Shown here: piece after piece, positions 758-25,005 of the stretch | How positions within the stretch are numbered: position 1 is the first letter of the stretch | Layout: every line of letters begins with the position of its first letter | Origin: a virus | Lineage: Duplodnaviria > Heunggongvirae > Uroviricota > Caudoviricetes | DNA length: 25,044 bases | IMG/VR virus record: IMGVR_UViG_2529293240_000020 | Coordinates: 1 to 25,044 of that record | Strand: one strand, 5' to 3' | The notes under the pieces: model-generated | Seen by the model: only the letters and a program-made list of their open reading frames with translations | Databases searched by the model: none | What the model was told of the DNA's origin: nothing | Position numbers and translations under genes: made by a program

Positions 758-2359
758 ATGAACAATGAACTCCCCGATGATATTGAGCTGCTTAAAGCCA
801 TGTTGCGTAAGCAACAGAGTCGGCTTCGACAGTATGCCTGTCAGATCGCGGGCTATGAGCAGGAAATTGAACGGCTGAAAGCGCAACTCGACAGGTTGCG
901 TCGTATGTTGTTCGGCCAGAGTTCAGAGAAAAAGCGTCATAAGCTTGAAAATCAGATCCGACAGGCAGAAAAACGACTGTCGGAACTGGAAAACCGGCTG
1001 AACACAGCCAGAAATCTTCTGGAAGATGCATCGACAGTCACAGATTCACCTGACACCAGTCCCCCGTCAGAAAACCCGATCGCCAGTAAGCCTGAATCCC
1101 CAGGACGAAAATCTTCACGAAAACCGCTGCCGGCAGAACTTCCCCGGGAGACACATCGCCTTCTGCCTGCTGAAACCAGTTGCCCGGCCTGTGGAGGTGT
1201 TCTGAAAGAAATGGGGGAAACAATCTCAGAGCAACTGGATATCATTAATACCGCCTTTAAAGTTATCGAAACCATACGTCCCAAACTGGCCTGTAGCCGG
1301 TGTGATGTCATCGTTCAGGCACCACTTCCCCCTAAACCGATCGAACACGGTTATGCCAGTGCAGGGTTACTTGCACGGATCCTGGTCAGCAAATATATGG
1401 AACATATCCCTTTATATCGCCAGTCAGAAATATACGCGCGACAGGGCGTGGAGCTGAGCCGTAATACCATGGTGCGCTGGGTATCAGAAATGGCAGACAA
1501 ACTCCGTCCTCTGTATATAGCGCTGAATGACTATGTTCTGGAGGCAGGAAAGGTGCACGCAGATGACACTCCGGTGAAACGTACTGGCCCCGGGGAACGG
1601 AAGACGAAAACGGGTCGTCTGTGGGTATACGTCAGGGATGATCGTAATGCGGGTTCATCCCTGCCGGCAGCCGTCTGGTTCGCGTATTCGGCAGATCGCA
1701 AAGGAGAACATCCGCAGCTCCACCTGGCAAAGTATCAGGGCGTACTGCAGGCTGATGCCTATGCAGGTTATAACGTACTGTACGAAACGGGCCGGGTGAA
1801 GGAAGCCGGGTGCCTGGCCCACGCCCGCCGAAAAATCCATGACGAGGATGTGCGCCGTCCGACAGAAATGACTCAGGAAGCGCTCAGACGGATAGCAGAG
1901 TTATACGACATAGAAGCGGAGATACGTGGCAGTCCGGCAGAGGAACGGCTTGCAGTCAGAAAAGCCAGAAGCGTCCAGTTGATGCAGTCGTTGTACGACT
2001 GGATACAGTTGCAGAGGAAAACGCTGTCGAAACATGCGGAGATGGCGAAGGCGTTCGACTATATCCTGAATCACTGGAATGCGCTGAACGAGTTCTGTCG
2101 TGACGGCTGGGTGGAAATAGACAACAACATCGGTGAAAACGCGTTACGATCGGTGGCGGTTGGAAGAAAAAATTATCTCTTTTTCGGCTCAGACAAGGGA
2201 GGAGAAAGTGCGGCGATCATCTACAGTCTGCTGGTCACCTGCAAACAGAACGAAGTGGAGCCGGAGGACTGGTTGCGCGAAGTGATCGAGAAGCTCAATG
2301 ACTGGCCGTCGAACCAAGTGCATGAACTGCTGCCCTGGAACTTCTCGTCTGTAAAATAA
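758..2359 (+). CDS. IS66-family transposase TnpC (orf3), 533 aa
   Basis: Long ORF with N-terminal coiled-coil/leucine-zipper region, zinc-finger-like CPACGG...CSRC motif and the large catalytic region characteristic of IS66 TnpC. Confidence 0.8.
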
Positions 2360-2391
2360 TCCTTACGCTACGTACTTCTCGGGGCGCTTAC

Positions 2392-2683
2392 TGTTGACCT
2401 GCTCTGCGTTTAATTTGGCATTGGTTCCCATACGCCGCATCTGAGCATCAAAATCAGCCACGCCTTTTACCGTCATGCTGCCACCAAGCTCGGCAATCAT
2501 CGCCGTGTAGCGGTTGCCAAGCGCATCCAGACTGCGCCCAGCGGCGTCGGTTGTGGCTTTGACCAGGCGCATGGCTTTCTGGTTATTCCGGGCGAACTGC
2601 GACATATTCGCGCCATACTGCCGGGCTTTGGCGGTCAGGTTCCCGGCAAGGTTGATCATGATTTCCGTGCTGAGACGGCTACC
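2392..2683 (-). pseudogene. Tail tape-measure gene fragment (N-terminal ~90 codons); codons 1-3 lie at 3950..3958 across the IS600 insertion; 3-prime end truncated by IS66
   Basis: Removing IS600 and one TSD copy restores GGAG-N7-ATG GCA ACA GGT AGC CGT CTC AGC ACG GAA ATC ATG ATC AAC... in frame with ORF 2363..2659; the last ~10 codons of that ORF (SKRPEKYVA*) are read from the IS66 terminus. Position directly after the tail-chaperone gene and the alanine-rich sequence fit a tape-measure N-terminus. Confidence 0.5.
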
Positions 2684-2725
2684 TGAGGTGTACTGGCAAT
2701 AGCGGACACTACCATTTGTTCTTTT

Positions 2726-3544
2726 TTAAGCAGCCATCTGATGATATTTTTCCCTGAAGGCTGCCGGGGAGATATTCCCCAGACGAGAGTGACGACGCTG
2801 ACGATTGTAGAAAATCTCAATGTATTCCCGTATTACTGAGATGGCTTCATCCCGGTTATTAAAACGATAGTGGCTCAGGCTCTCATTTTTCAGCGTTCCC
2901 CAGAAGCTTTCCATCGGAGCGTTGTCGTAACAGTTACCTTTACGCGACATTGATGTTTTCAGACCAGACTGCTCCTGTATGACCCGGTAATCGTATGCGC
3001 AGTACTGTGAACCTCGATCAGAGTGGTGGATTAGCCCGGCAGGTGGGCGCTGGCTCCTGAGCGCCATAAACAGGGCTTTACCTGTCAGCTCTTTTGTCAT
3101 GCGCTCTCCCATGGCGTAGCCGACAATTTCGCACGTATAAACATCTTTGATGCCAGCGAGGTACAACCATCCCTCCTGTGTGGCAACATACGTCAGGTCC
3201 GCCACCCAGACCTGATTTGGTGCTGTAGGAGCGAACGTCTGGTTCAGCAGATTTGGCGCAACTGGCAGATTGTGGTTCGGGTTCGTAGTCGCTCTGAACT
3301 TGCGTTTCTGCTTACAGCGTAGCCTTAGCTCCTTACGAAGACGTGCCAGTCGGTCACGACCAACGATGATGCCATTCTCTGCCAGCTCCGTCTGGAACCG
3401 CCGGGTTCCATATGTTTCGCGAGTGCGGATATGTGCCACCTTAATCTCCAGTTTTAGCCGCTCATCACTTTGTTTTCTGTCTGAGGGTTCATGCTGTACC
3501 CAGTTGTAATAACCGCTCCTGGATACACCAAATACCTGACACAT
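2726..3544 (-). CDS. IS600-like transposase OrfB (DDE integrase domain), expressed as an OrfAB fusion by -1 frameshift
   Basis: IS3-family OrfB with DDE catalytic region (HSDRGSQY... and downstream E); the frame overlaps the orfA 3-prime end. Confidence 0.8.
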   Translation of the reverse strand: MCQVFGVSRSGYYNWVQHEPSDRKQSDERLKLEIKVAHIRTRETYGTRRFQTELAENGIIVGRDRLARLRKELRLRCKQKRKFRATTNPNHNLPVAPNLLNQTFAPTAPNQVWVADLTYVATQEGWLYLAGIKDVYTCEIVGYAMGERMTKELTGKALFMALRSQRPPAGLIHHSDRGSQYCAYDYRVIQEQSGLKTSMSRKGNCYDNAPMESFWGTLKNESLSHYRFNNRDEAISVIREYIEIFYNRQRRHSRLGNISPAAFREKYHQMAA

Positions 3545-3579
3545 CGCTTCAATGGGAAATTGTTGTCGCCATTGTTCGA

Positions 3580-3882
3580 TTAACGCGTATTTTTCAGCGA
3601 CTCCTGTGCAAAATACGCTGTTGCTTTTTTTAATATATCTCGCTCAAGGCGAGCTTCATTTAACGCCTTACGCAGTTGCAGAATTTCAGATTCCAGTTCA
3701 GCCACCGTGCGGGAACCAGGAGTACCGAGCCCTTTTCTGGCGGCGGTAACCCATTGTCCTAAAGTGCCTTCAGGAAGGGATAATCGGGAAGCGCCTTCAC
3801 TGATCGAAAGTTGATTTTCAAGAACCGTTCTGACAGCTTCGGCTTTGAACTCTTTAGAGTAACGTTGGGTTTTTCTGCTCAT
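3580..3882 (-). CDS. IS600-like OrfA (HTH plus leucine zipper), 100 aa
   Basis: ATG at 3882..3880, typical IS3-family OrfA length and sequence. Confidence 0.8.
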   Translation of the reverse strand: MSRKTQRYSKEFKAEAVRTVLENQLSISEGASRLSLPEGTLGQWVTAARKGLGTPGSRTVAELESEILQLRKALNEARLERDILKKATAYFAQESLKNTR

Positions 3883-3946: not shown

Positions 3947-4154
3947 ACCTGTTGCCATACTGTTTCTCCAGTTGCTTTATCAGGCGGAACAACTGCCGCA
4001 GGGGCAGTTGTTCCAGGTACTGAATGCTGAATCGCGAAGACAGGTTAACCAGCAGGTTCATCAGTGCCGCCGCCAGCGGCATCAGTTCGCCCCCGCGTTG
4101 CCACCTCCTCAAGCATGTCATCCAGCACAGCCGCTTTCGTGCTGATAAGCTCAA
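3947..4154 (-). CDS. Overlapping +1-frame ORF at the 3-prime end of the tail-chaperone gene; possible frameshift extension. Its current stop is IS-derived; natively it ends at a TAG overlapping the tape-measure start
   Basis: Frame open from a TGA near 4178 through the chaperone stop (4045) to the IS600 junction; no ATG start (the ORF track begins it at TTG); translation is protein-like and amphipathic. Confidence 0.3.
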
Positions 4155-4440
4155 GGTCTGCCGGGTGGAGCATTCGCAGCTGTTTCATGTCCAGCGGGCC
4201 GGGGATATTACCGATTGACGCAACCTGACGGCGCATCATCTCCAGTCCCATCAGCACCTCAGAACAGTAGGCCACCGCCTTTCCGTTCCCGCCCATGACG
4301 ACGCGTTCTGCGGCCAGTTGCGCATCAATCACATCACTGGCGGTCAGTTCGCGCAGTTTCACGGTTTTATGCAGGGTTTCATCTGCCGTGCCTTTGCCGG
4401 TCAGAAGCCCGTGTTTCAGTTCAAATTCCATTGCGGCCAT
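4045..4440 (-). CDS. Phage tail assembly chaperone (Mu-type), 131 aa
   Basis: Small acidic protein immediately after the tail tube gene and before the tape-measure start, the conserved myovirus order. Confidence 0.5.
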   Translation of the reverse strand: MAAMEFELKHGLLTGKGTADETLHKTVKLRELTASDVIDAQLAAERVVMGGNGKAVAYCSEVLMGLEMMRRQVASIGNIPGPLDMKQLRMLHPADLELISTKAAVLDDMLEEVATRGRTDAAGGGTDEPAG

Positions 4441-7060: not shown

Positions 7061-7602
7061 GGCAGAACCTCCTTCCAGAAATGACTGATAACCTGTTGCA
7101 GCTCCTGCTGGCTGGCAGAAGACAGCCCCAGAAATTCACGTTGCGGAATGTTCATCATGCGGTGATGTGCGCCGACGGTCTGCCAGACCGGATATTTCAG
7201 CGCCCGCCCGAAACACTGCGAGATAAGCCGTTTGTGGGCGCTGACCGGCACGCTGCCGGAAAAGCCGTCATTCATGATGCGGGCATAATCCAGCGGTGAA
7301 CCGATACGCACCACGCGGTTTTCCACGATGTACTGGATACTCTCCAGCAGATGGCCTTCACCGCGCAGCAGACTCTGGTTGCCGTGGCGGGTCTTTTTGT
7401 ACCCGTCAGACCAGTCCGGCCAGCGTTCGCCACCCGGACTGGTTTTCTCATCGATGATGCGGCGGCGGGTCTGTGATTCCACCACCGCACCGATGCTTTC
7501 CAGCAGCTCTGACTGCAATGAACCCTCTGCCAGCTTTTCAACGGCGCGGCGGATATCCTCCAGACGCTGGTCACCGCTGACCTGTACAGAAATCCCCATC
7601 AC
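7057..7602 (-). CDS. Phage virion morphogenesis (tail completion) protein, Mu G-like family, 181 aa
   Basis: Sequence character and position; ATGA-type overlap with the upstream gene. Confidence 0.5.
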   Translation of the reverse strand: MMGISVQVSGDQRLEDIRRAVEKLAEGSLQSELLESIGAVVESQTRRRIIDEKTSPGGERWPDWSDGYKKTRHGNQSLLRGEGHLLESIQYIVENRVVRIGSPLDYARIMNDGFSGSVPVSAHKRLISQCFGRALKYPVWQTVGAHHRMMNIPQREFLGLSSASQQELQQVISHFWKEVLP

Positions 7603-8036
7603 AGCACCCCTTTCAGGTTGTTACGGGTGAACAGCCGGGCATTGGCACCCACCACAATAATTTTCCCGTTGTCGGTTTCTGCCGGGGTGGCATACGTCGG
7701 CAGGCCCAGGTCACGGGTGCCGTTCGCCATTTCACGCAGGGTTTTAATGGCGTCGTCGTAGCGTTTCTGGATCAGCTCCGTGATTTGATTGTCACGCTCT
7801 GATAACCAGTAAAACGCCAGCGATACCGCCACGCGTTGCAGCGGGCGCGGGATTTCCGTCACCCCCAGCGGCAGCTGGTAGCGGCGGGACAGAAACGAAT
7901 CAATTTCCGCTTCCGCATCACTGATGGCCTGACGGATTTTGTCTTCATCCAGCCCGTTGGTTTCCCGGTTAATCGCCATGTTCCAGACAAGATTGCCGTC
8001 CGCGCGTAACAGATCTTCCTGCGTGATGTATCCCAT
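7599..8036 (-). CDS. Mu gp36-like head-tail connector protein, 145 aa
   Basis: Position downstream of the major head gene in a Mu-type order; overlapping start/stop. Confidence 0.5.
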   Translation of the reverse strand: MGYITQEDLLRADGNLVWNMAINRETNGLDEDKIRQAISDAEAEIDSFLSRRYQLPLGVTEIPRPLQRVAVSLAFYWLSERDNQITELIQKRYDDAIKTLREMANGTRDLGLPTYATPAETDNGKIIVVGANARLFTRNNLKGVL

Positions 8037-8347
8037 CAGCCTTTCTCCGCTTCCCGGACAATCAGATTCGGCTCTGCCATCAGGCGGGTGGCAACCGCAG
8101 CGCTCACCGCCACATCCTCACCGATATGTGACCAGAAACGGCCACAGCGCCAGAACCCGTTTTCAGACACGGCCCTGACGTTCAGCCGGACAGGGACGTC
8201 ACCCTGTACAGCAACCGGGTCTTCAGCCGGACGTGGTTCATTCGCCTGACCGTCAGCCACAATAACGTCTGCCAGCGGTGCCGGGTTTTCCTGTGCAGCG
8301 CTGTTCTTTGCGGCTTTCGCGCCTTTGGTTTCTGCTTTTTCACTCAT
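8036..8347 (-). CDS. Mu-like phage protein (FluMu N-terminal-domain-like), Ala/Pro-rich N-terminus, 103 aa
   Basis: Small ORF directly after the major head gene, typical of Mu-like head modules. Confidence 0.45.
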   Translation of the reverse strand: MSEKAETKGAKAAKNSAAQENPAPLADVIVADGQANEPRPAEDPVAVQGDVPVRLNVRAVSENGFWRCGRFWSHIGEDVAVSAAVATRLMAEPNLIVREAEKG

Positions 8348-8418
8348 GACTCTGCCTTTTAAAAGGCAGTTAAAAGGGCATTCACAGCACCTTTTAACTG
8401 CGGTTTACGGATGACGGG
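8348..8418 (-). promoter_or_regulatory. Structured intergenic region after the major head gene: perfect 18-bp palindrome CTGCCTTTTAAAAGGCAG (8351..8368) and a 9-bp-stem hairpin GTTAAAAGG-N12-CCTTTTAAC (8368..8397)
   Basis: Inverted repeats read directly from the sequence; an mRNA stem-loop after the capsid gene is a common phage arrangement. Confidence 0.35.
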
Positions 8419-9324
8419 TTATGCCGGGGGGGTGATGTACGGGCTGTCCACGATCTCCACATCCTTGTACCAGATGTTGGAATCGCCGCCGTTAACCAGC
8501 ATGGCGTCAATAATGAGCTTCGCGTCCGCACGGTTTTTCGGCCCCACCACAAGGGTGGTCGGGCGGATGCCCAGCGGCTCACCGTTGGTGCCCTTCATGC
8601 CCCGCAGCAACTCATTGGCTTTTTTGTAGTTCTCCACCGTCAGTGCTGCACGGGAACCGACGGCGGTCTGCCAGAAGCCGAAGCCCGCATTACAGCGACC
8701 GTCCACGCCGTACAGGAACTCGTGGTTCTTGAAGGTGTGCTCGCTGTTCAGATCGTCCAGGGCTTCAAACTTAAAGGCGCGTCGCGTCTGCCAGATGATG
8801 GGTTTCAGCACCTGCGACTCATCAATCAGGAACCACGGTTCGCCCTTGTCTGATGCCGGGGTGCCGACAACGTTGCTGTACGTACCGTCACCCAGCGGGT
8901 GGTCTTCATCAAAGAAGTTCTGGCCGTCAAAGCACAGGGTGTTAAAACCGGCACACAACAGGGCGTAACACAGCTTGTCCGGGAACACAGCAGTCATACG
9001 GCCATAGCGTTCGGCGGTAATGCTGTACTGACCAATCTGGTCATCTTCAATGTGTTCACGCTTAACGCGAATGGAACTTTCCCAGAGTTTGTTGGTGATG
9101 GTGTAACCATAACCGTCCAGCGTTGCCAGCTGACGCTCACCGACCCATTCTTTGATGTCCGGTAAATCTTTCATCCAGCCGTAAGTGTTGGAGGCGGACG
9201 AACTCGGCACCTCAGAAGCAATACGATTCCACTGCGGTTCGACACCACTCAGTCCACGGGTAAAGGCGGCGCTCAGGCAGGTGGTCAGTGCATGAAGGAT
9301 TTCAGAACTGATAGTCTGTGACAT
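8419..9324 (-). CDS. Major head (capsid) subunit, Mu gpT-like, 301 aa
   Basis: Length and sequence typical of Mu-like major head subunits; position after the protease/scaffold gene. Confidence 0.8.
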   Translation of the reverse strand: MSQTISSEILHALTTCLSAAFTRGLSGVEPQWNRIASEVPSSSASNTYGWMKDLPDIKEWVGERQLATLDGYGYTITNKLWESSIRVKREHIEDDQIGQYSITAERYGRMTAVFPDKLCYALLCAGFNTLCFDGQNFFDEDHPLGDGTYSNVVGTPASDKGEPWFLIDESQVLKPIIWQTRRAFKFEALDDLNSEHTFKNHEFLYGVDGRCNAGFGFWQTAVGSRAALTVENYKKANELLRGMKGTNGEPLGIRPTTLVVGPKNRADAKLIIDAMLVNGGDSNIWYKDVEIVDSPYITPPA

Positions 9325-9331
9325 GTGTTAC

Positions 9332-10288
9332 TTACTCCTGTTTCGGTTTAGCGGCGAGGAACTCTTCCCCGGTAATACCCATGCTGCGACACATCGCCAG
9401 TTCGGCATCGGTCAGTGTCTGCGCGGGTTTATCCTTGCCCTGGCTGGGCTTGTCGTTGTTAACCAGCGGCTGTGCACCTTTGGTGTACTCCGCAAACTGT
9501 TTGCGGCCTTCTTCCGTGCGGCAGGTGGCAAGGAACATGTCACGGTTTGCCGGGGCGACTTTTCCGGCCCCGATGGCCGCATCCACAAGCGCCTCGGCTT
9601 CCTTCTCTTCCAGTTGCTGAAGGCGTTTTTCTGCGGTTTCGGCACGGTTCAGTGCCAAATTGTGGGTTTCCACCGGCACAAACTTCGTCAGGTCAGGTGT
9701 CTGTGCGCGGTTCAGCGCCACCTGTTCGTTCTCCTGAAGTTGTTTAATGGCGGCCACGGTATCGTCCACCGTGGCGGATTCAGCCAGCCCAAGCAGGCCG
9801 GTGATTTGCACAGGTACTGTCATCGGGTTTTTCTCCGTATTCAGTGCAGGAAAATCCAGGTTAGGTTTGTTGGTCAGCCCGACGCTGGACAGGCGCGTCA
9901 CCGCACCGTCTGCGTCATGGAAAAACGCCGGGCTGTAATAGCGGTAGCGGCGCTCGCTCAGCATCCACCGGGCGGACTCACTCCAGACAACACGCCCTTC
10001 AATGGTGCCGCTGTCCGTCACCCGCAGTGCTTCCACCCAGCCATACGCCGGAGCCTCTTCACCCCGCGGGCCTTTAATTTCGGTGGCATGTTCAATGTCC
10101 ACCGGAATGTTGATGTCGGACGAACGGGCAACCACCTCATGTGGATTGCGGTTCATCCACGTCCGGCCATCGCGCCCGGTGAACTCACCCGCAGGAACGA
10201 GTTCAAGCCATTCCGGCAGTTGAGCGGGTGTCAGCTCAGGGATGGGTTCTGGCAGGGAAAAACACAGCGCCAGCAGTTCCGGTTGCAT
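9332..10288 (-). CDS. Head maturation protease / scaffold protein, Mu gpI-like, 318 aa
   Basis: Protease-like N-terminal half and coiled-coil, charged scaffold-like C-terminal half (EKRLQQLEEKEAEALV...); GGAG SD 9 nt upstream of ATG 10288. Confidence 0.7.
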   Translation of the reverse strand: MQPELLALCFSLPEPIPELTPAQLPEWLELVPAGEFTGRDGRTWMNRNPHEVVARSSDINIPVDIEHATEIKGPRGEEAPAYGWVEALRVTDSGTIEGRVVWSESARWMLSERRYRYYSPAFFHDADGAVTRLSSVGLTNKPNLDFPALNTEKNPMTVPVQITGLLGLAESATVDDTVAAIKQLQENEQVALNRAQTPDLTKFVPVETHNLALNRAETAEKRLQQLEEKEAEALVDAAIGAGKVAPANRDMFLATCRTEEGRKQFAEYTKGAQPLVNNDKPSQGKDKPAQTLTDAELAMCRSMGITGEEFLAAKPKQE

Positions 10289-10331
10289 GTCAGTCTCCGT
10301 CGTCTGGGGTTACCGACGGTCAGTATGCGGA

Positions 10332-10367
10332 AGGCAGAAAAAAAGCCGGATTTACCGGCTTCACTGA
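10332..10367 (-). promoter_or_regulatory. Copy B of a ~35-bp repeated dyad element (AAGCCGG-ATTTA-CCGGCTT hairpin plus T-run on the minus strand), 50 nt upstream of the protease gene start
   Basis: Near-identical to 17871..17906 (two substitutions and one A-run length difference); minus-strand RNA would fold as a 7-bp stem, 5-nt loop, followed by UUUUUU. Confidence 0.45.
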
Positions 10368-10502
10368 AAACGGGGAAATACCCCCTTCAAAACCCCTTCA
10401 AAAACGCCACGGACGCTTCAAAAAAGCCAGGGTGTACATTCATGCCATCAGAATAAAAAACGCGTTTCTGATGCGTTTCAGGGGCATTTACGGCGGGGAG
10501 GG

Positions 10503-11255
10503 TTATTCACTGTTAAAACGGGCCTGTCTGGCCGCCAGCTCCTGCTCACGGTTTATGCCGGGATTGTAGTTCCAGCCCGGATCAATCCCTTCCGGCACCT
10601 CTTCCTCTTCGCCCGTACGTTTGTTCACCCAGCGGACAGTTCTGATTTCCGGCGCTTCGGTGTGAATGGTGCCCTGTGCCGCCAGTTGCGCATACTCACC
10701 ACGGCTGACCTGACGGATGGTGCATTTGCAGCCCCAGCCGTTAGGGGCAAAATGCGTCTGCCAGAACGGATGCTCTACCGGCAGACACAGACGCGCCCAT
10801 TTCACATGCTCCACCCGGTGCTCACGGGATGGCCCCAGCTCGTACATCAGATACGGCATGGCCTGCTTTGTCCGCTGAATGCGTTCCCACTGGCCCGCCG
10901 CGCGGGCGGTGCGCATGTTGGTATCAAAAATCGTGCGGAGGCGGCGGTCGCTGCCCAGTTGCACGGTGCGGGTTTCACCCGTCAGCGGATCATCCATCTC
11001 CTGTACGCCCCACCATCCGCGTTTTATCAGCAACGGTTGCAGCATCTCCCGGAACTCGCTGAACGTCTGCCCGCTTTGCAGGGCGTCTTCCACAAGGGCT
11101 TTCACATCCGACAACAAATCCAGTTGCAGCATTCTGGCCACGGGGAAGCTGTACCGGTGCTCTTCCCGCCACACATCCCGGTAATCAAAACCGGGACGCA
11201 GCTTCTTCGCCTTCAGCCACGCCAGCGCCTCTTTCGGGATGAGGGTTTCACGCAT
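10503..11255 (-). CDS. Head morphogenesis protein, Mu gpF-like, ~250 aa from ATG at 11255
   Basis: Position after the portal gene; ATG at 11255 overlaps the portal stop by 8 nt (the track ORF extends to 11312). Confidence 0.65.
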   Translation of the reverse strand: MRETLIPKEALAWLKAKKLRPGFDYRDVWREEHRYSFPVARMLQLDLLSDVKALVEDALQSGQTFSEFREMLQPLLIKRGWWGVQEMDDPLTGETRTVQLGSDRRLRTIFDTNMRTARAAGQWERIQRTKQAMPYLMYELGPSREHRVEHVKWARLCLPVEHPFWQTHFAPNGWGCKCTIRQVSRGEYAQLAAQGTIHTEAPEIRTVRWVNKRTGEEEEVPEGIDPGWNYNPGINREQELAARQARFNSE

Positions 11256-12819
11256 GAGCAGTGTCTCCCAGCGCACGCGCCTTAAAGCACACCTCCGCCA
11301 GTTGCAGGGCAAAGTCGTCCGCGTTCAGCGTTTCCTGAAGCTCAGGCAGGCGTTTCAGAAAGTCATCAAAACTGTCGCACTCCTGCGCCAGTGTCAGCAC
11401 CGGGTTCGTGAACGCCTCGCCGGTTTTCTGCCAGTCACGCAGGGCATCATCCACCATCTGTGCCAGTTCGTCGGGGTGTTCCCTGTTCAGGGCGACGCGC
11501 TCGCGGTTCATCGCCATATCACCCGGCATCCCGGCAGACACCGGATGCAGAACATCAGCCCCTTCGTCTGGCTCAGCCAGGCCGAACCGGTCCCGCAGCG
11601 CCGACTCCTGAACCCGCATCCCCCGGTCAATCAGCGCCACCAGAGCATCTGTCAGCGCCTTCAGATCTTCGGCTTCACTGATACGCAGAACAACACGGGG
11701 GTAGTGCGCCTGTGGCCCGTAGTTGGCCTCGATGTAGGGCCGCACCAGATATTCATTCAGCGTGTTAGCCAGCTGCCGCGCGTCCCAGCGCACAATGTCC
11801 ATGCGCACCTGATTGTGCACGTCCGCCTGTGAACGCGAACTGCCGTTATCCGTGGTCATGGTCTGCCCCAGCACAGCCTTACTGATTTGCGCATCACACC
11901 ATTCCGCCATTTCACGGAACAGTGCGCCGCCGTTATTCCGGCTGGCGGTTTCCTGCATCTCCAGTTGCATGGACTGCGGAATGGCACACCCGGCATCCGA
12001 GGCAATGGAGGCAATCGCATCAATCAGTACGCGGATTTGCTCCTCCGTGGCGTTGGGACCGTATTTCCCCACCGTGACCGGAATGCCGAATTTTTCCGCG
12101 AATGCCCACCAGTCACGCACGGTAAAGGATTTCAGCATGTACATTACCGCCACCAGACGGGCCAGACCGTTACGCAGCGGCAGACCGGATTTCAGGCGCG
12201 GCTGGTGAACAATGAATTTTCCCGGTGTCAGTGGTACACCATCCACCGGTTCATCATCCGTCAGCAGGCGGAACTGGCGCAGTGTGGGCTTTTCGGCTTT
12301 CAGAAAACGGGGATCAACCCACTCATAATCACGGGGCACCCAGTGATTGTTACGGGTGTTCCACAGAATTTCACAGACCGCCACGCCTTTTCCCAGCCCG
12401 TCGAGCAGATCAAACATCAGCTCGGGGATTTGCGGGGCTTCCATCAGCGCACGGATGGCGTCCGCCAGCTGCACGTCAGCATCGTCATCACTGGCCGCCA
12501 CCACCACCGGTTCGATACCCGCCACCGTCAGCTTGCGGGTGCGCAGTACCGAGGCGTAATGCAAATCGCGTTCTTCCATCTCTTCAGCAAGGATAAAAAA
12601 ATCACGCGTGATACCGTCGGCGGCATTGCGCAGAATACCGGCCAGTCTGCCGGGATTCAGCCCGGAGGCGATGCTGATGCCCGGAGAGGCCGGACGCACA
12701 CCCGCCTGACGCGGACGGGCCTGTACTTCATCGAGCCTCTCTTTTTTCAGCGTGTCTTCCTCACCGGTTGCCGGGTTCAGCAGACGGCGAACGGCCCCGG
12801 CCAGTTGTTTCAGGTTCAC
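11248..12819 (-). CDS. Portal protein, Mu gp29-like, 523 aa
   Basis: Size and position immediately after the large terminase gene with ATGA-type overlap. Confidence 0.8.
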   Translation of the reverse strand: MNLKQLAGAVRRLLNPATGEEDTLKKERLDEVQARPRQAGVRPASPGISIASGLNPGRLAGILRNAADGITRDFFILAEEMEERDLHYASVLRTRKLTVAGIEPVVVAASDDDADVQLADAIRALMEAPQIPELMFDLLDGLGKGVAVCEILWNTRNNHWVPRDYEWVDPRFLKAEKPTLRQFRLLTDDEPVDGVPLTPGKFIVHQPRLKSGLPLRNGLARLVAVMYMLKSFTVRDWWAFAEKFGIPVTVGKYGPNATEEQIRVLIDAIASIASDAGCAIPQSMQLEMQETASRNNGGALFREMAEWCDAQISKAVLGQTMTTDNGSSRSQADVHNQVRMDIVRWDARQLANTLNEYLVRPYIEANYGPQAHYPRVVLRISEAEDLKALTDALVALIDRGMRVQESALRDRFGLAEPDEGADVLHPVSAGMPGDMAMNRERVALNREHPDELAQMVDDALRDWQKTGEAFTNPVLTLAQECDSFDDFLKRLPELQETLNADDFALQLAEVCFKARALGDTAHA

Positions 12820-16018: not shown

Positions 16019-16623
16019 TTCGGCCCCGCTGATATTTTGTGACAGCTCGATTTGCTGTAACGGGCAAAGCCGTCAAGGGTTCTTACCCCGAGATAGCCCA
16101 GCGCCGGGGTAAACAACATCAGCGTGATATCCCAGTCCGGTGACGGCATATGCAGCGTGATACCGTTCGCACCGGCAACCGCACCGGCAATCTGGCCACA
16201 GGAGAGCAACAGCACATAGGCCAGACTGCTGTAACAGGACAGACGGGCCAGCAACGGGCGCGTCTGGCGCACATAGCTGTCCGTGGCGTTGTCACCGTTG
16301 CGGATGGTTTCCTGTTGTTCGTGGTGAGCGGCCTGCTGGTCAGCCAGCACCAGCTTCTGCCGCTCCACCTCCAGCTGTTGCAGCTGGACTTTCAGGGTTT
16401 CCAGCTGCACCAGTTGCTCCGGTGACAGCATCACCAGTTTTTGTTCCAGAATGCGTTGCTGTTCAGCCACCGGCAGGCTTTCCCGGACGCTTTCCACCAT
16501 ACCGGCCACCGAGTCAGCGGCGGCAGATGTGCTGCCACCAAACCAGCGCCCGACGGAACGAATCAGCCCCGGCCCGGCTTTCAGCAGAACGGAGGCGATG
16601 CCTGAAAGGGTTAACGGGTCCAT
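16015..16623 (-). CDS. Phage membrane protein, 202 aa: soluble coiled-coil N-terminal region and hydrophobic C-terminal segments; possible holin-like or lysis-associated protein
   Basis: Hydrophobic stretches LSCYSSLAYVLLLSCGQIAGAVAGA and ITLMLFTPALGYLGV; position downstream of the endolysin gene. Confidence 0.45.
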   Translation of the reverse strand: MDPLTLSGIASVLLKAGPGLIRSVGRWFGGSTSAAADSVAGMVESVRESLPVAEQQRILEQKLVMLSPEQLVQLETLKVQLQQLEVERQKLVLADQQAAHHEQQETIRNGDNATDSYVRQTRPLLARLSCYSSLAYVLLLSCGQIAGAVAGANGITLHMPSPDWDITLMLFTPALGYLGVRTLDGFARYSKSSCHKISAGPK

Positions 16624-23196: not shown

Positions 23197-24438
23197 TCAC
23201 CCAACTAGCTTCATTCCTTTTATCCCACCTTCAATCATGCTTCCACGATCCGCTGCCATCACAAAATTTGCCCACCATTGCATCATCGGGCGACGCTGTT
23301 CCAGGTAATCGCTGCGGTTATAAGCACGACGAACCTCATTCTTATCCACATGGGCCAATGCTGCCTCAATGGCATCAGGCGGAAAGCCTTGTTCATTAAG
23401 AGCCGTACTGGCAATTGATCTCAGACCATGCGAAACAAGCACACCACCAAAACCTGCGCGTTTTAGTGAGGCGTTAACAGTCTGACTGTTCATAGGCTGG
23501 TTGGGCTTGATACGGCTAGGAAAGATAAATTCTCGGTTGCCGCTTAGCGGTTTCATCATCTCCAGCACAGCTATTGCTTCATCTGACAATGGAACAGTAT
23601 GGTCGCGGTTCATTTTCATGCGTGCTGCGGGAATCTTCCACTCTTGCGCTTCTATGTCTACTTCTTCCCAGCGAGCTTCAGCCGCTTCGGCAGGGCGGGT
23701 AATAGTAAGAAGTTGCCACATGAACAGGCAGCGTGTGGAAAGGCTAATGCTGGCTGTTCGCATTGTCTGCATCAGTTGAGATAGCTGATCCGGTCGAATG
23801 CTGGGCATGTTCTTTTTCTGAGGCTTTTCGAAGGCTTTACCGATATTAACGCTGGGAACAGCATCAATCAGCCCTGTGTTCTGGGCATAGATCATGACCT
23901 CATTAATACGTTGACACAGGCGACGAACCGTTTCCAGTGCTCCTCTGGCCTGAACCGGTTGTACGGCCTGAACCAGTGTATGAGCTTTAATATCTGTAAC
24001 GCTAACGTCGCCAATCGCAGGAAAGACATCTCTTTCAAGAGAGCGCCAGATATCTTCCGCATAGTCCTCTGTCACACTGGCTTTCTTCACATTCCACCAA
24101 CGTTCAGCTACGAGCTGGAAAGTATTGGTTTTGGCTTCCAGCGAACTACGCAATTGTTCTTGCTGATGTTCCTGCGGATCAATCTGTTTAGCTAGGAGTG
24201 AGCGGGACTCTGCACGGTAGTTTCTGGCATCGGCAAGGGTAACTGACGGGTAAGGGCCTATGCTTTTCTTTGCTCGTTTCTTGGTGACAGGGCGAATGTA
24301 GCGAAACTGCCAGATTTTACTCCCGCTGGATTTAATGAGTAGCTCAAGGCCATCGCCATCATAGAGAACGTAGTCCGCTTCCTTGGGTTTAGCAGATTCG
24401 ATTTCCTTAACGGATAGAGGTTTGGTTTGTCTTGCCAT
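23197..24438 (-). CDS. int: Tyrosine recombinase / integrase, P4-type (CP4-57 IntA-like), 413 aa, apparently intact
   Basis: Downstream of ssrA in the same orientation with a 204-bp gap; catalytic H-x-x-R (HGLRS) and Tyr (AYNRSDY) motifs; N-terminus MARQTKPLSVKEIESAKPKEADYVLYDGDGLELLIKSSGSK typical of P4-family integrases. Confidence 0.85.
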   Translation of the reverse strand: MARQTKPLSVKEIESAKPKEADYVLYDGDGLELLIKSSGSKIWQFRYIRPVTKKRAKKSIGPYPSVTLADARNYRAESRSLLAKQIDPQEHQQEQLRSSLEAKTNTFQLVAERWWNVKKASVTEDYAEDIWRSLERDVFPAIGDVSVTDIKAHTLVQAVQPVQARGALETVRRLCQRINEVMIYAQNTGLIDAVPSVNIGKAFEKPQKKNMPSIRPDQLSQLMQTMRTASISLSTRCLFMWQLLTITRPAEAAEARWEEVDIEAQEWKIPAARMKMNRDHTVPLSDEAIAVLEMMKPLSGNREFIFPSRIKPNQPMNSQTVNASLKRAGFGGVLVSHGLRSIASTALNEQGFPPDAIEAALAHVDKNEVRRAYNRSDYLEQRRPMMQWWANFVMAADRGSMIEGGIKGMKLVG

Positions 24439-24458
24439 TGCCGGGTTTCCATAGTTTT

Positions 24459-24509
24459 AGGCACCTCAAAGACAATATAGCTTTATGAAGTGCCTAACAA
24501 GGTGCCTAA
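24459..24509 (-). promoter_or_regulatory. Three copies of an 8-mer (AGGTGCCT / GTGCCTAA) in the ssrA-int intergenic region; candidate arm-type or operator sites and promoter region of int
   Basis: AGGCACCT at 24459..24466 (inverted), GTGCCTAA at 24490..24497 and 24502..24509, within 70 bp upstream of the int start. Confidence 0.3.
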
Positions 24510-24563
24510 AAGGATCGGATTTAATTAGTTGGCATCAGACTTCGCGGGACAAATTCGGGGCAC

Positions 24564-24596
24564 AAAAAAGCCCGCAGGGCTTGCGCCGTGCGGGCT
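24564..24596 (-). terminator. Rho-independent terminator downstream of ssrA (GC-rich 11-bp stem with one mismatch, then UUUUUU on the minus strand)
   Basis: GCCCGCAGGGC-TTGC-GCCGTGCGGGC followed by the complement of the A-run at 24564..24569; lies ~45 nt past the tmRNA 3-prime end. Confidence 0.5.
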
Positions 24597-24642
24597 CTTA
24601 GGACTTCATCGGATGACTCTGGTAATCACCGATGGAGAATTT

Positions 24643-25005
24643 TGGTGGAGCTGGCGGGAGTTGAACCCGCGTCCGAAATTCCTACATCCTCGGTACTACA
24701 TGCTTAGTCAGTCTTTACATTCGCTTGCCAGCTGCGGACGGACACGCCACTAACAAACTAGCCTGATTAAGTTTTAACGCTTCAACCCCAGGCAGGGCTT
24801 CCACGCGATCTCTTTTGGGTTTGACCTCTCTTGATCCCCGTCCTAAGAGCGGAGGCTAGGGAGAGAGGGCTCTAAGCAGGTTATTAAGCTGCTAAAGCGT
24901 AGTTTTCGTCGTTTGCGACTATTTTTTGCGGCTTTTTACGAGGCCAACCGCCCCTCGGCATGCACCTTGGGTTTCGCAAATCCCGTCGAATCCAGAATCA
25001 GCCCC
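24643..25005 (-). ncRNA. ssrA: tmRNA (SsrA, 10Sa RNA), 363 nt
   Basis: Reverse complement reads GGGGCTGATTCTGGATTCGACGGG ... GCAAACGACGAAAACTACGCTTTAGCAGCTTAATAA (tag-peptide ORF) ... GGACGCGGGTTCAACTCCCGCCAGCTCCACCA, matching enterobacterial ssrA as recalled. Confidence 0.9.

Follow-up and report, generated by a model that had tools for sequence, protein, structure and literature searches.

Locus and layout of the gap

The window, that is, the whole stretch of DNA analysed (25,044 nt), is part of an Escherichia coli prophage and carries Mu-like morphogenesis genes, all on the minus strand (Table 1). After the gpT-family major head gene comes an ORF in the position of Mu gp35, which is a head-to-tail connector protein according to GenBank record AF083977. 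Its product falls in phrog_10420, of unknown function, with no match in Pfam or NCBIfam, and in RefSeq it is labelled hypothetical, or "HI1506-related" in one genome. The Mu Gp36 family gene is next, followed by the neck and tail genes.

Positions 8348-8418 correspond exactly to the 71-nt intergenic gap that separates the gpT stop codon from the ATG of the next ORF. The initial annotation had located its structures immediately downstream of the major capsid gene, and this is correct, the genes as well as their sense RNA being on the minus strand. It had also taken this gap for the only one in the head module, which is wrong: a larger gap of 214 nt (10289-10502) lies between the Mu-F-like gene and protease I and contains two canonical terminators with T6-T7 tails. 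On the sense strand, the 71-nt gap and its borders read TAA-CCCGTCATCCGTAAACC-GCAGTTAAAAGG-T-GC-TGTGAAT-GC-CCTTTTAACTGC-CTTTTAAAAGGCAG-AGTC-ATG.

Table 1. Coordinates of the genes and gap features in the window.
Feature	Position	Strand	Remarks
Portal	11248-12819	minus	Pfam Portal_Mu
Mu-F-like gene	10503-11312	minus	
Protease I	9332-10288	minus	
Major head (capsid) gene, Mu gpT family	8419-9324	minus	301 aa; Pfam Mu-like_gpT, E = 2.5e-111
gpT stop codon TAA	8421-8419	minus	
Spacer between stop codon and hp1	8402-8418	minus	17 nt, CCCGTCATCCGTAAACC
hp1, main RNA hairpin	8366-8401	minus	12 perfect pairs plus 2 inner G-C pairs
C-UUUU tract, then AAAA	8361-8365	minus	short, terminator-type; directly 3' of hp1; also in the 5' arm of the palindrome
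hp2, perfect 18-bp palindrome	8352-8369	strand-neutral	CTGCCTTTTAAAAGGCAG
Probable Shine-Dalgarno AAGG of the downstream ORF	8355-8358	minus	7-nt spacer to the ATG; within the 3' arm of the palindrome
103-aa ORF, position of Mu gp35	8036-8347	minus	ATG at 8347
Mu Gp36 family gene	7599-8036	minus	next after the 103-aa ORF; neck and tail genes then

The prophage copy in the window is truncated by IS3 and IS66 elements, and its late genes may never be expressed. The same 1.5-kb stretch was found in 48 of 5,426 complete E. coli genomes, with 80-99.8% identity. Against 50,697 deposited phage genomes, a megablast of 7900-9400 was without a match, and for the gap itself blastn returned either nothing or chance matches. 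Among Rfam families, only tmRNA passes the gathering threshold in the whole window; a permissive search of 8250-8520 gave best E-values of 5.3 and 8.6, which are at chance level.

The main hairpin

The larger of the two structures in the gap, hp1, begins 17 nt past the gpT TAA on the sense strand. It had been described as a hairpin with a 9-bp stem adjacent to the palindrome; the hairpin exists, and its stem had been understated, since it has 12 perfect pairs plus two more and reaches about -20 kcal/mol. As DNA in the sense orientation, the arm GCAGTTAAAAGG (8401-8390) pairs with CCTTTTAACTGC (8377-8366), corresponding in RNA to the 5' arm GCAGUUAAAAGG and the 3' arm CCUUUUAACUGC. The interior (8389-8378) consists of a bulged U, GC, a 7-nt loop UGUGAAU and GC. 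The core alone contributes -15.5 kcal/mol, the rest coming with the inner pairs. In the partition function the pair probabilities range from 0.89 for the outer pair to about 1.0 in the middle.

The stem has a GC-rich base clamp, GCAG/CUGC, and a middle of 8 A-U pairs. If the A/U part is taken as pairing between an A-tract and a U-tract, the GC core is reduced to just 4 pairs with a bulge, GG(U)GC/GCCC. The flank directly 3' of the stem reads C-UUUU-AAAA, U making up 4 of its first 5 nt, and the C-UUUU is kept in the E. coli-type variants, except for one with CUUUC (L117). A simple terminator scan, with the rule of at least 5 T in 8, does not flag hp1. We do not count this failure against termination, because both annotated terminators of Mu, which also have U4, are missed by the same scan. 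In the spacer before hp1, UAAA (8407-8404) can lengthen the stem through pairing with UUUA (8363-8360), as seen in the minimum-energy fold.

The stable structure anticipated by the initial annotation is indeed predicted. An 86-nt sense RNA folds with -24.6 kcal/mol (z = -2.7) and the 86-nt antisense with -29.4 kcal/mol (z = -4.8), and in both orientations none of 200 shuffled sequences folds as well. In sliding windows, the raw 44-nt folding energy places hp1 no higher than about 12th within the 6.5-kb, GC-rich module, so the case for this hairpin rests on the perfection of the stem, its position and its conservation, and not on energy alone. The 12-bp perfect stem is one of the two longest in the window, the other being at 3986-4014. 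The 8-mer CCTTTTAA has 4 copies in the window against 0.53 expected, all of them within 8355-8397.

The palindrome and its competition with the main hairpin

The perfect 18-bp palindrome reported in the gap was confirmed. As RNA it would form a 7-bp stem with a UUAA loop (-9.6 kcal/mol). It is the only zero-spacer palindrome with arms of at least 7 in the window, and arms of at least 9 arose in 20 of 200 Markov-1 simulations (10%) of the 25-kb window. Thus, it is mildly unusual on the scale of the window and very unlikely by chance inside a 71-nt gap. When up to 3 mismatches are allowed, its only match in the window is itself, with no family of half-sites; half-sites are not significantly enriched in regulatory gaps, and no promoter-like site is present in the gap.

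Both features of the pair of hairpins are real, although they are not independent. The 3' end of hp1 and the start of hp2 share the 4 nt CTGC (8366-8369), so their full forms are mutually exclusive. The partition function gives a probability of 0.02 for the outer pair of full hp2, against 0.89 for the outer pair of hp1, and of about 0.1 for the inner pairs or partial forms of hp2. A truncated hp1 combined with full hp2 reaches -14.3 kcal/mol, and the best alternative conformers of the two hairpins are about 1-1.6 kcal/mol apart. In the folded RNA, the palindrome would probably lose to hp1 and is probably no independent second device. It is most simply read as the terminal CUGC of hp1 followed by the U-tract, the A-run and the Shine-Dalgarno part AAGGCAG.

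The Shine-Dalgarno sequence lies within the 3' arm of the palindrome, and the accessibility of the downstream ribosome-binding site was compared within the module. It opens at the lowest energy of the 13 sites, 5.1 kcal/mol, the others varying from 6.5 to 13.1. In Klebsiella-type relatives, a weak hp2-like helix, CCACCUU-UAAA-GAGG(A)UGG, covers the Shine-Dalgarno sequence directly after hp1. No pair of this helix is changed on both sides, and 79.7% of its cells are paired compared with 80.6% in shuffled data, because the 3' arm is simply the conserved Shine-Dalgarno sequence. The analogue is absent from the Serratia-type, Brenneria-type and Mu gaps. A role of hp2 as a hairpin that sequesters the Shine-Dalgarno sequence was rejected as unlikely, on the basis of the partition function, the opening energies and the missing covariation.

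Conservation and covariation in relatives

Relatives at the DNA level were drawn from E. coli genomes, IMG/VR, GTDB genomes and one metagenome scan. With gpT as the probe, we found 13 loci in reference genomes (Klebsiella, Raoultella, Serratia, Brenneria, Kluyvera, Pluralibacter and a Paracoccaceae MAG) and 70 loci in IMG/VR; when viral sequences were scanned with the downstream protein, practically the same contigs came up as with gpT. A gpT homologue is encoded in 320 phage records. The window and 75 enteric relative loci, with 69-99% gpT identity, provide 37 distinct stop-to-start gaps.

A hairpin of 10-14 bp is found at the same place in all 37 distinct gaps, with at least 9 different stem sequences among them, such as GUUACAGCGGG/CCCGCUGUAAC, CUUUAUCGGGUG/CACCCGAUAAAG and GCGUUAGCGGGUG/CGCUCGCUAACGU. 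In an unguided MAFFT alignment, where four E. coli rows are one column out of register, 86% of the cells of a 12-pair helix are paired and 7 of the 12 pairs are changed on both sides. The covariation score is 0.475, compared with at most 0.125 for slid partners, and none of 500 shuffles attains 0.475. A second alignment, of the 22 non-E. coli hairpins, shows 90.9% of cells paired and a score of 0.477, against at most 0.096 for slid partners. RNAalifold independently recovered compensatory changes in 5 of 7 pairs. The stems of the relatives contain 10 G-U or U-G pairs against 1 A-C or C-A pair, and the series G-C to G-U to A-U is present. Such an imbalance would be expected only of a sense strand folding as RNA, and it speaks against a site in DNA.

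Variants of the E. coli type, among them 6 metagenome contigs, differ mainly in the loop and in the spacer before hp1, through both substitutions and indels; the spacer varies in length as well as in sequence. One exception is a pair of loci (L020/L021) with GCAG changed to CCGG and CUGC to CUCC, where hp1 is shortened and one G-U pair is left. A more divergent locus (L063, 75% gpT identity) has the architecture of the window, and compensatory changes could be read off from it, for example A-U replaced by G-C between GCAG/CUGC and GCGG/CCGC. The closest protein relatives, of the Klebsiella, Serratia and Brenneria types, have the hairpin with no U-tract on its 3' side, as in the flanks CCACCUUUAAAG, UCACCCAAAG and AGACGCUA. 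In several relatives the hairpin is palindromic throughout, its loop being a self-complementary TTTAAA.

Beyond this group, a hairpin at this place is still the usual case: a textbook terminator with a T6 tail follows gpT in one distant phage (L078), and GC-rich stems are found after gpT in two other loci (L013 and L079), in Vibrio martha, in Shewanella MuM16-2 and in a Mu-like element inserted in an Stx phage. The DMS3 hairpin at this position is only weak, and two loci (L080 and L082) have no gap at all after gpT. A covariance model (R1) was built from 22 hairpins of the Klebsiella, Serratia and Brenneria types; it finds neither hp1 of the window, nor the Mu hairpin, nor those of the distant phages. 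This null result indicates that the hairpin types are positional and structural counterparts with no single detectable sequence family, and that what the covariation backs is the presence of a hairpin here within the lineage, not one exact sequence family.

The counterpart in Mu and D108

In Mu, D108 and the Yersinia phage Tongde, T is followed by TAACCGTCA-TTAAAAGGCGGT-TCAG-ACCGCCTTTTAA-CC. In Mu and D108 this hairpin occupies the same position as hp1, between a gpT-family capsid gene and the gene at the gp35 position. The window shares with the three phages the post-stop sequence TAACC(C)GTCAT and the stem base TTAAAAGG/CCTTTTAA, and the layout of A-tract, stem and U4 is found in both the window and Mu/D108. 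These likenesses are read off the sequences, the Mu-type hairpin being represented by a single sequence type. The Mu core GGCGGTTCAGACCGCCTTTT (AF083977, 20068-20087) is annotated as "terminator, predicted by TransTermHP", and the same feature in D108 (GQ357916, 20117-20137) as "rho-independent terminator". Within its annotated terminator, Mu has UUUU where the window has C-UUUU. The Mu/D108 terminator is itself a prediction only, and a literature search found no experiments on the gap between T and 35 in Mu-like phages.

There are also differences. Mu has a GC core of 6 bp with a 4-nt loop (GGCGGT-TCAG-ACCGCC) where the window has GG(U)GC-UGUGAAU-GCCC, and the GCAG/CUGC base clamp and the overlapping 18-bp palindrome are found in the window and are missing in Mu. 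The capsid proteins are 38% identical, while the proteins encoded downstream have no similarity detectable by BLASTP. The gap of the window is nevertheless more Mu-like than the gaps of its closest protein relatives, which hints at a local exchange.

Proposed function and alternatives

The initial annotation had proposed that the paired structures stabilise the capsid mRNA or attenuate transcription, in favour of capsid protein. This is still the best-supported reading, given the conserved structure and the counterpart annotated as a terminator in Mu and D108, and it would apply to hp1 only, as the palindrome finds no support in such a role. We consider it rather probable that hp1 makes the capsid cistron more abundant than the cistrons downstream, either as a leaky terminator, as a barrier to 3' exonucleases, or as both. 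The compensatory evolution of the hairpin across enterobacterial genera and the Mu family suggests that the structure after gpT-family capsid genes has been selected as RNA.

In this proposal, the stem-loop would form on the late transcript of the sense (minus) strand, some 17 nt past the major-head stop codon, and would raise the capsid mRNA over the neck and tail cistrons of the same transcript. By one route, hp1 would be a leaky intrinsic terminator, which is plausible because its A-tract, stem and C-UUUU resemble the hairpin annotated as the Mu/D108 terminator. As the genes after T must, we infer, be read through from PI, any terminator at hp1 would have to be partial. By the other route, RNA ending at hp1 or trimmed to it would be shielded from 3'-to-5' exonucleases, as in malE-malF. 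The two routes are compatible. The structure, its strand, its conservation and covariation and its match to the Mu/D108 terminator in position and sequence are observed here, whereas termination and stabilisation, with more capsid protein as their outcome, are what we infer. Since the Klebsiella, Serratia and Brenneria types lack a U-tract after the hairpin, canonical termination cannot be the common function, and protection of the 3' end from exonucleases is the more likely function common to all types. The short U-tract, the small GC core GG(U)GC/GCCC, the null result with model R1, the energy rank of about 12th and the IS elements that cut this copy are points against an effect of hp1 on capsid abundance.

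It is unlikely, even so, that hp1 of the window is purely a protective or processing hairpin with no termination at all. The polymerase would then read through, endonucleolytic cleavage would occur downstream, and trimming would stop at hp1 to leave a long-lived capsid mRNA. Such an explanation overlaps with the proposal above, being its non-terminator half. It agrees with the covariation seen in the relatives, whose hairpins are maintained though the 3' flank has no U-tract, and a mechanism of the malE-malF type is common in enteric operons (PMC5927463). However, U4 directly follows the GC core in the window, in Mu and in D108, the hairpin of the latter two is called a terminator both by curators and by TransTermHP, and the flank read downstream of hp1 has no clean RNase E motif RN↓WUU.

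A translational switch is improbable. Here hp2 would hide the Shine-Dalgarno AAGG, the full hp1 would take CUGC and free the site, and a protein or the ribosome would set the balance, like Com at mom. The location of the Shine-Dalgarno sequence inside the 3' arm of hp2, the 4 shared nucleotides and the small energy difference between the conformers speak for such a device, and in Klebsiella-type relatives the weak Shine-Dalgarno hairpin has about 80% of its cells paired. On the other hand, hp2 is hardly populated in the partition function, either in full or in part, and of the ribosome-binding sites compared, this one is the easiest to open; moreover, the analogue shows no compensatory change and is missing from the Serratia-type, Brenneria-type and Mu gaps.

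A site acting in DNA is very improbable. The palindrome could be bound by a dimeric protein, such as a regulator or a nucleoid protein, or mark a recombination or mosaic junction. A perfect 9+9 palindrome is not expected in 71 nt, its TTTTAAAA centre is typical of dimer sites, and the fully palindromic hairpins with a TTTAAA loop in relatives point in the same direction, as does, for a junction, the gap of the window being closer to that of Mu than to those of the nearest protein relatives. Yet the window has no second copy of the palindrome and no half-site family, and the gap lacks a promoter-like site; in the relatives, the stems covary rather than conserve their sequence, tolerating G-U and not A-C, as expected of RNA.

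There is likewise very little chance that the two hairpins form a two-state switch coupling termination or stabilisation of the capsid mRNA (hp1) to translation of a low-copy neck protein (hp2), set by a phage RNA-binding protein or by loop-loop contacts. Such a switch draws on the 4-nt overlap, on the four clustered copies of CCUUUUAA/UUAAAAGG and on the recurrent UUUAAA loops of the relatives.

Finally, it is very unlikely that the structure has no function, as a product of chance or a relic in the AT-rich spacer of a decaying prophage: the copy is cut by insertion sequences, its folding energy is unexceptional for the module and AT-only runs readily yield palindromes of the TTTAAA type, but a covarying structure is retained from genus to genus, within the Mu family and among distant gpT phages, and the changes among E. 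coli variants are concentrated in the loop and spacer.

Significance

A capsid calls for its major protein in hundreds of copies, and for each neck protein in only about a dozen. If hp1 does raise the abundance of the capsid cistron, it would be one more case of a common phage design, in which a hairpin after the capsid gene skews the output of a single late transcript. It is an ordinary element; for Mu and D108, sequence records already list its counterpart as a terminator. The added value is comparative and modest: a post-gpT hairpin is held by compensatory evolution across several enterobacterial genera and the Mu family, and the U-tract missing in many of these relatives suggests RNA protection rather than termination as what they have in common. 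The result may be of use for the annotation of Mu-like prophages and for the design of expression cassettes.

Comparison with known systems

Cleavage by RNase III requires about two helical turns of duplex. An RNase III site was rejected on this length requirement, the 11-12-bp hairpins of the relatives being too short.

In the Com-dependent translational control of Mu mom, a hairpin stands beside a second one that sequesters the Shine-Dalgarno sequence. The gap of the window resembles this arrangement, with a 5' hairpin abutting a second one that includes the following gene's ribosome-binding site. It is no more than a resemblance: the second hairpin of the window, unlike that of mom, is predicted to be unpopulated and shows no covariation, and the ribosome-binding site is accessible.

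In T7, a single terminator, T-phi, sits right after capsid gene 10 (PMC6938266). In this classical parallel, the likeness with the putative terminator hp1 lies in the placement next to the 3' end of the capsid gene, in polycistronic transcripts and in a capsid protein that is the most abundant product (PMC6938266). T-phi acts on T7 RNA polymerase and is experimentally established, whereas hp1, known from its sequence, would involve the host polymerase; there is no sequence relationship between the two.

Intercistronic protective hairpins alter the stoichiometry of operons and are common in enteric operons (PMC5927463). The malE-malF hairpin is a REP sequence with measured effects on half-life, whereas hp1 is a predicted structure with no similarity to REP. 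Both place a stable, conserved hairpin just 3' of the most-needed cistron, and the malE-malF type does not require a U-tract, matching the Klebsiella, Serratia and Brenneria-type relatives (PMC5927463).

Loop conservation in the post-gpT hairpins of relatives

Among the gaps that follow the major head gene gpT in the collected loci L001-L077, mostly from enteric bacteria, the loop motif (U)UUAAA(C) is kept in most non-E. coli relatives while the stems vary. Since TTTAAA is self-complementary, the whole hairpin element is a perfect DNA palindrome in several of these gaps, and TTTAAA or TTTTAAAA is found again in both flanks of the hairpins.

Other stems, terminators and repeats in the window

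About 30 nt beyond the ORF for the tail assembly chaperone (4045-4440, phrog_508) lies a perfect 12-bp stem (3986-4014), which may stimulate the frameshift that yields the extended form of the chaperone or may be another intercistronic hairpin. Two further perfect 10-bp stems were also found; such stems occur at a mean of 0.35 per window in simulated sequences.

The head module has a second, larger gap on the minus strand (10289-10502), flanked by protease I and the Mu-F-like gene and containing two canonical terminators. The three direct repeats lying between these terminators could be activator sites.

Features of the window and example gaps in relatives
Feature	Position	Strand	Evidence or detail
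Tyrosine integrase	23197-24438		NCBIfam PRK09692, E = 1e-281
tmRNA gene	24643-25005		Rfam, 295.8 bits
Perfect 10-bp stem	16379-16409		loop 11 nt
Perfect 10-bp stem	7410-7443		loop 14 nt
Terminator AACGCG-TTTTTT	~10465	minus	canonical
Direct repeats (three) TTTTGAAG(C/G)G(G)	~10381-10426		between both terminators
Terminator GAAGCCGGTAAATCCGGC-TTTTTTT	10362-10336	minus	canonical
Perfect 12-bp stem GGAACAACTGCC-CCTGC-GGCAGTTGTTCC	3986-4014	minus	about 30 nt past the chaperone ORF
IS3-family element, ORFs	3580-3882 and 2726-3544	minus	
IS66-family transposase	758-2359	plus	
Gap with post-gpT hairpin, L005	3410-3492		
Gap with post-gpT hairpin, L012	3407-3492		

Integration and state of the prophage copy

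The tyrosine integrase gene adjoins the tmRNA gene (23197-25005), so this phage, whose head and tail genes are of the Mu type, appears to insert site-specifically at ssrA instead of transposing. The tail module ends directly after the chaperone ORF, and elements of the IS3 and IS66 families occupy the expected place of the tape-measure gene (758-3882); therefore, this prophage copy looks truncated and defective.

Comparison with Mu

By position, the larger head-module gap is the counterpart of the G/I gap, where Mu has its late promoter PI together with a terminator and the strong gyrase site. The gap after gpT (8348-8421) has both the sequence TAACC(C)GTCAT and the hairpin arms TTAAAAGG/CCTTTTAA in common with Mu (L087, 4054-4125), despite a Mu capsid only 38% identical to that of the window, whereas relatives with 71-76% identical capsids (compared in L001-L012) have hairpin sequences quite unlike it. 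This suggests an intergenic element swapped locally among E. coli Mu-like phages, or convergence.
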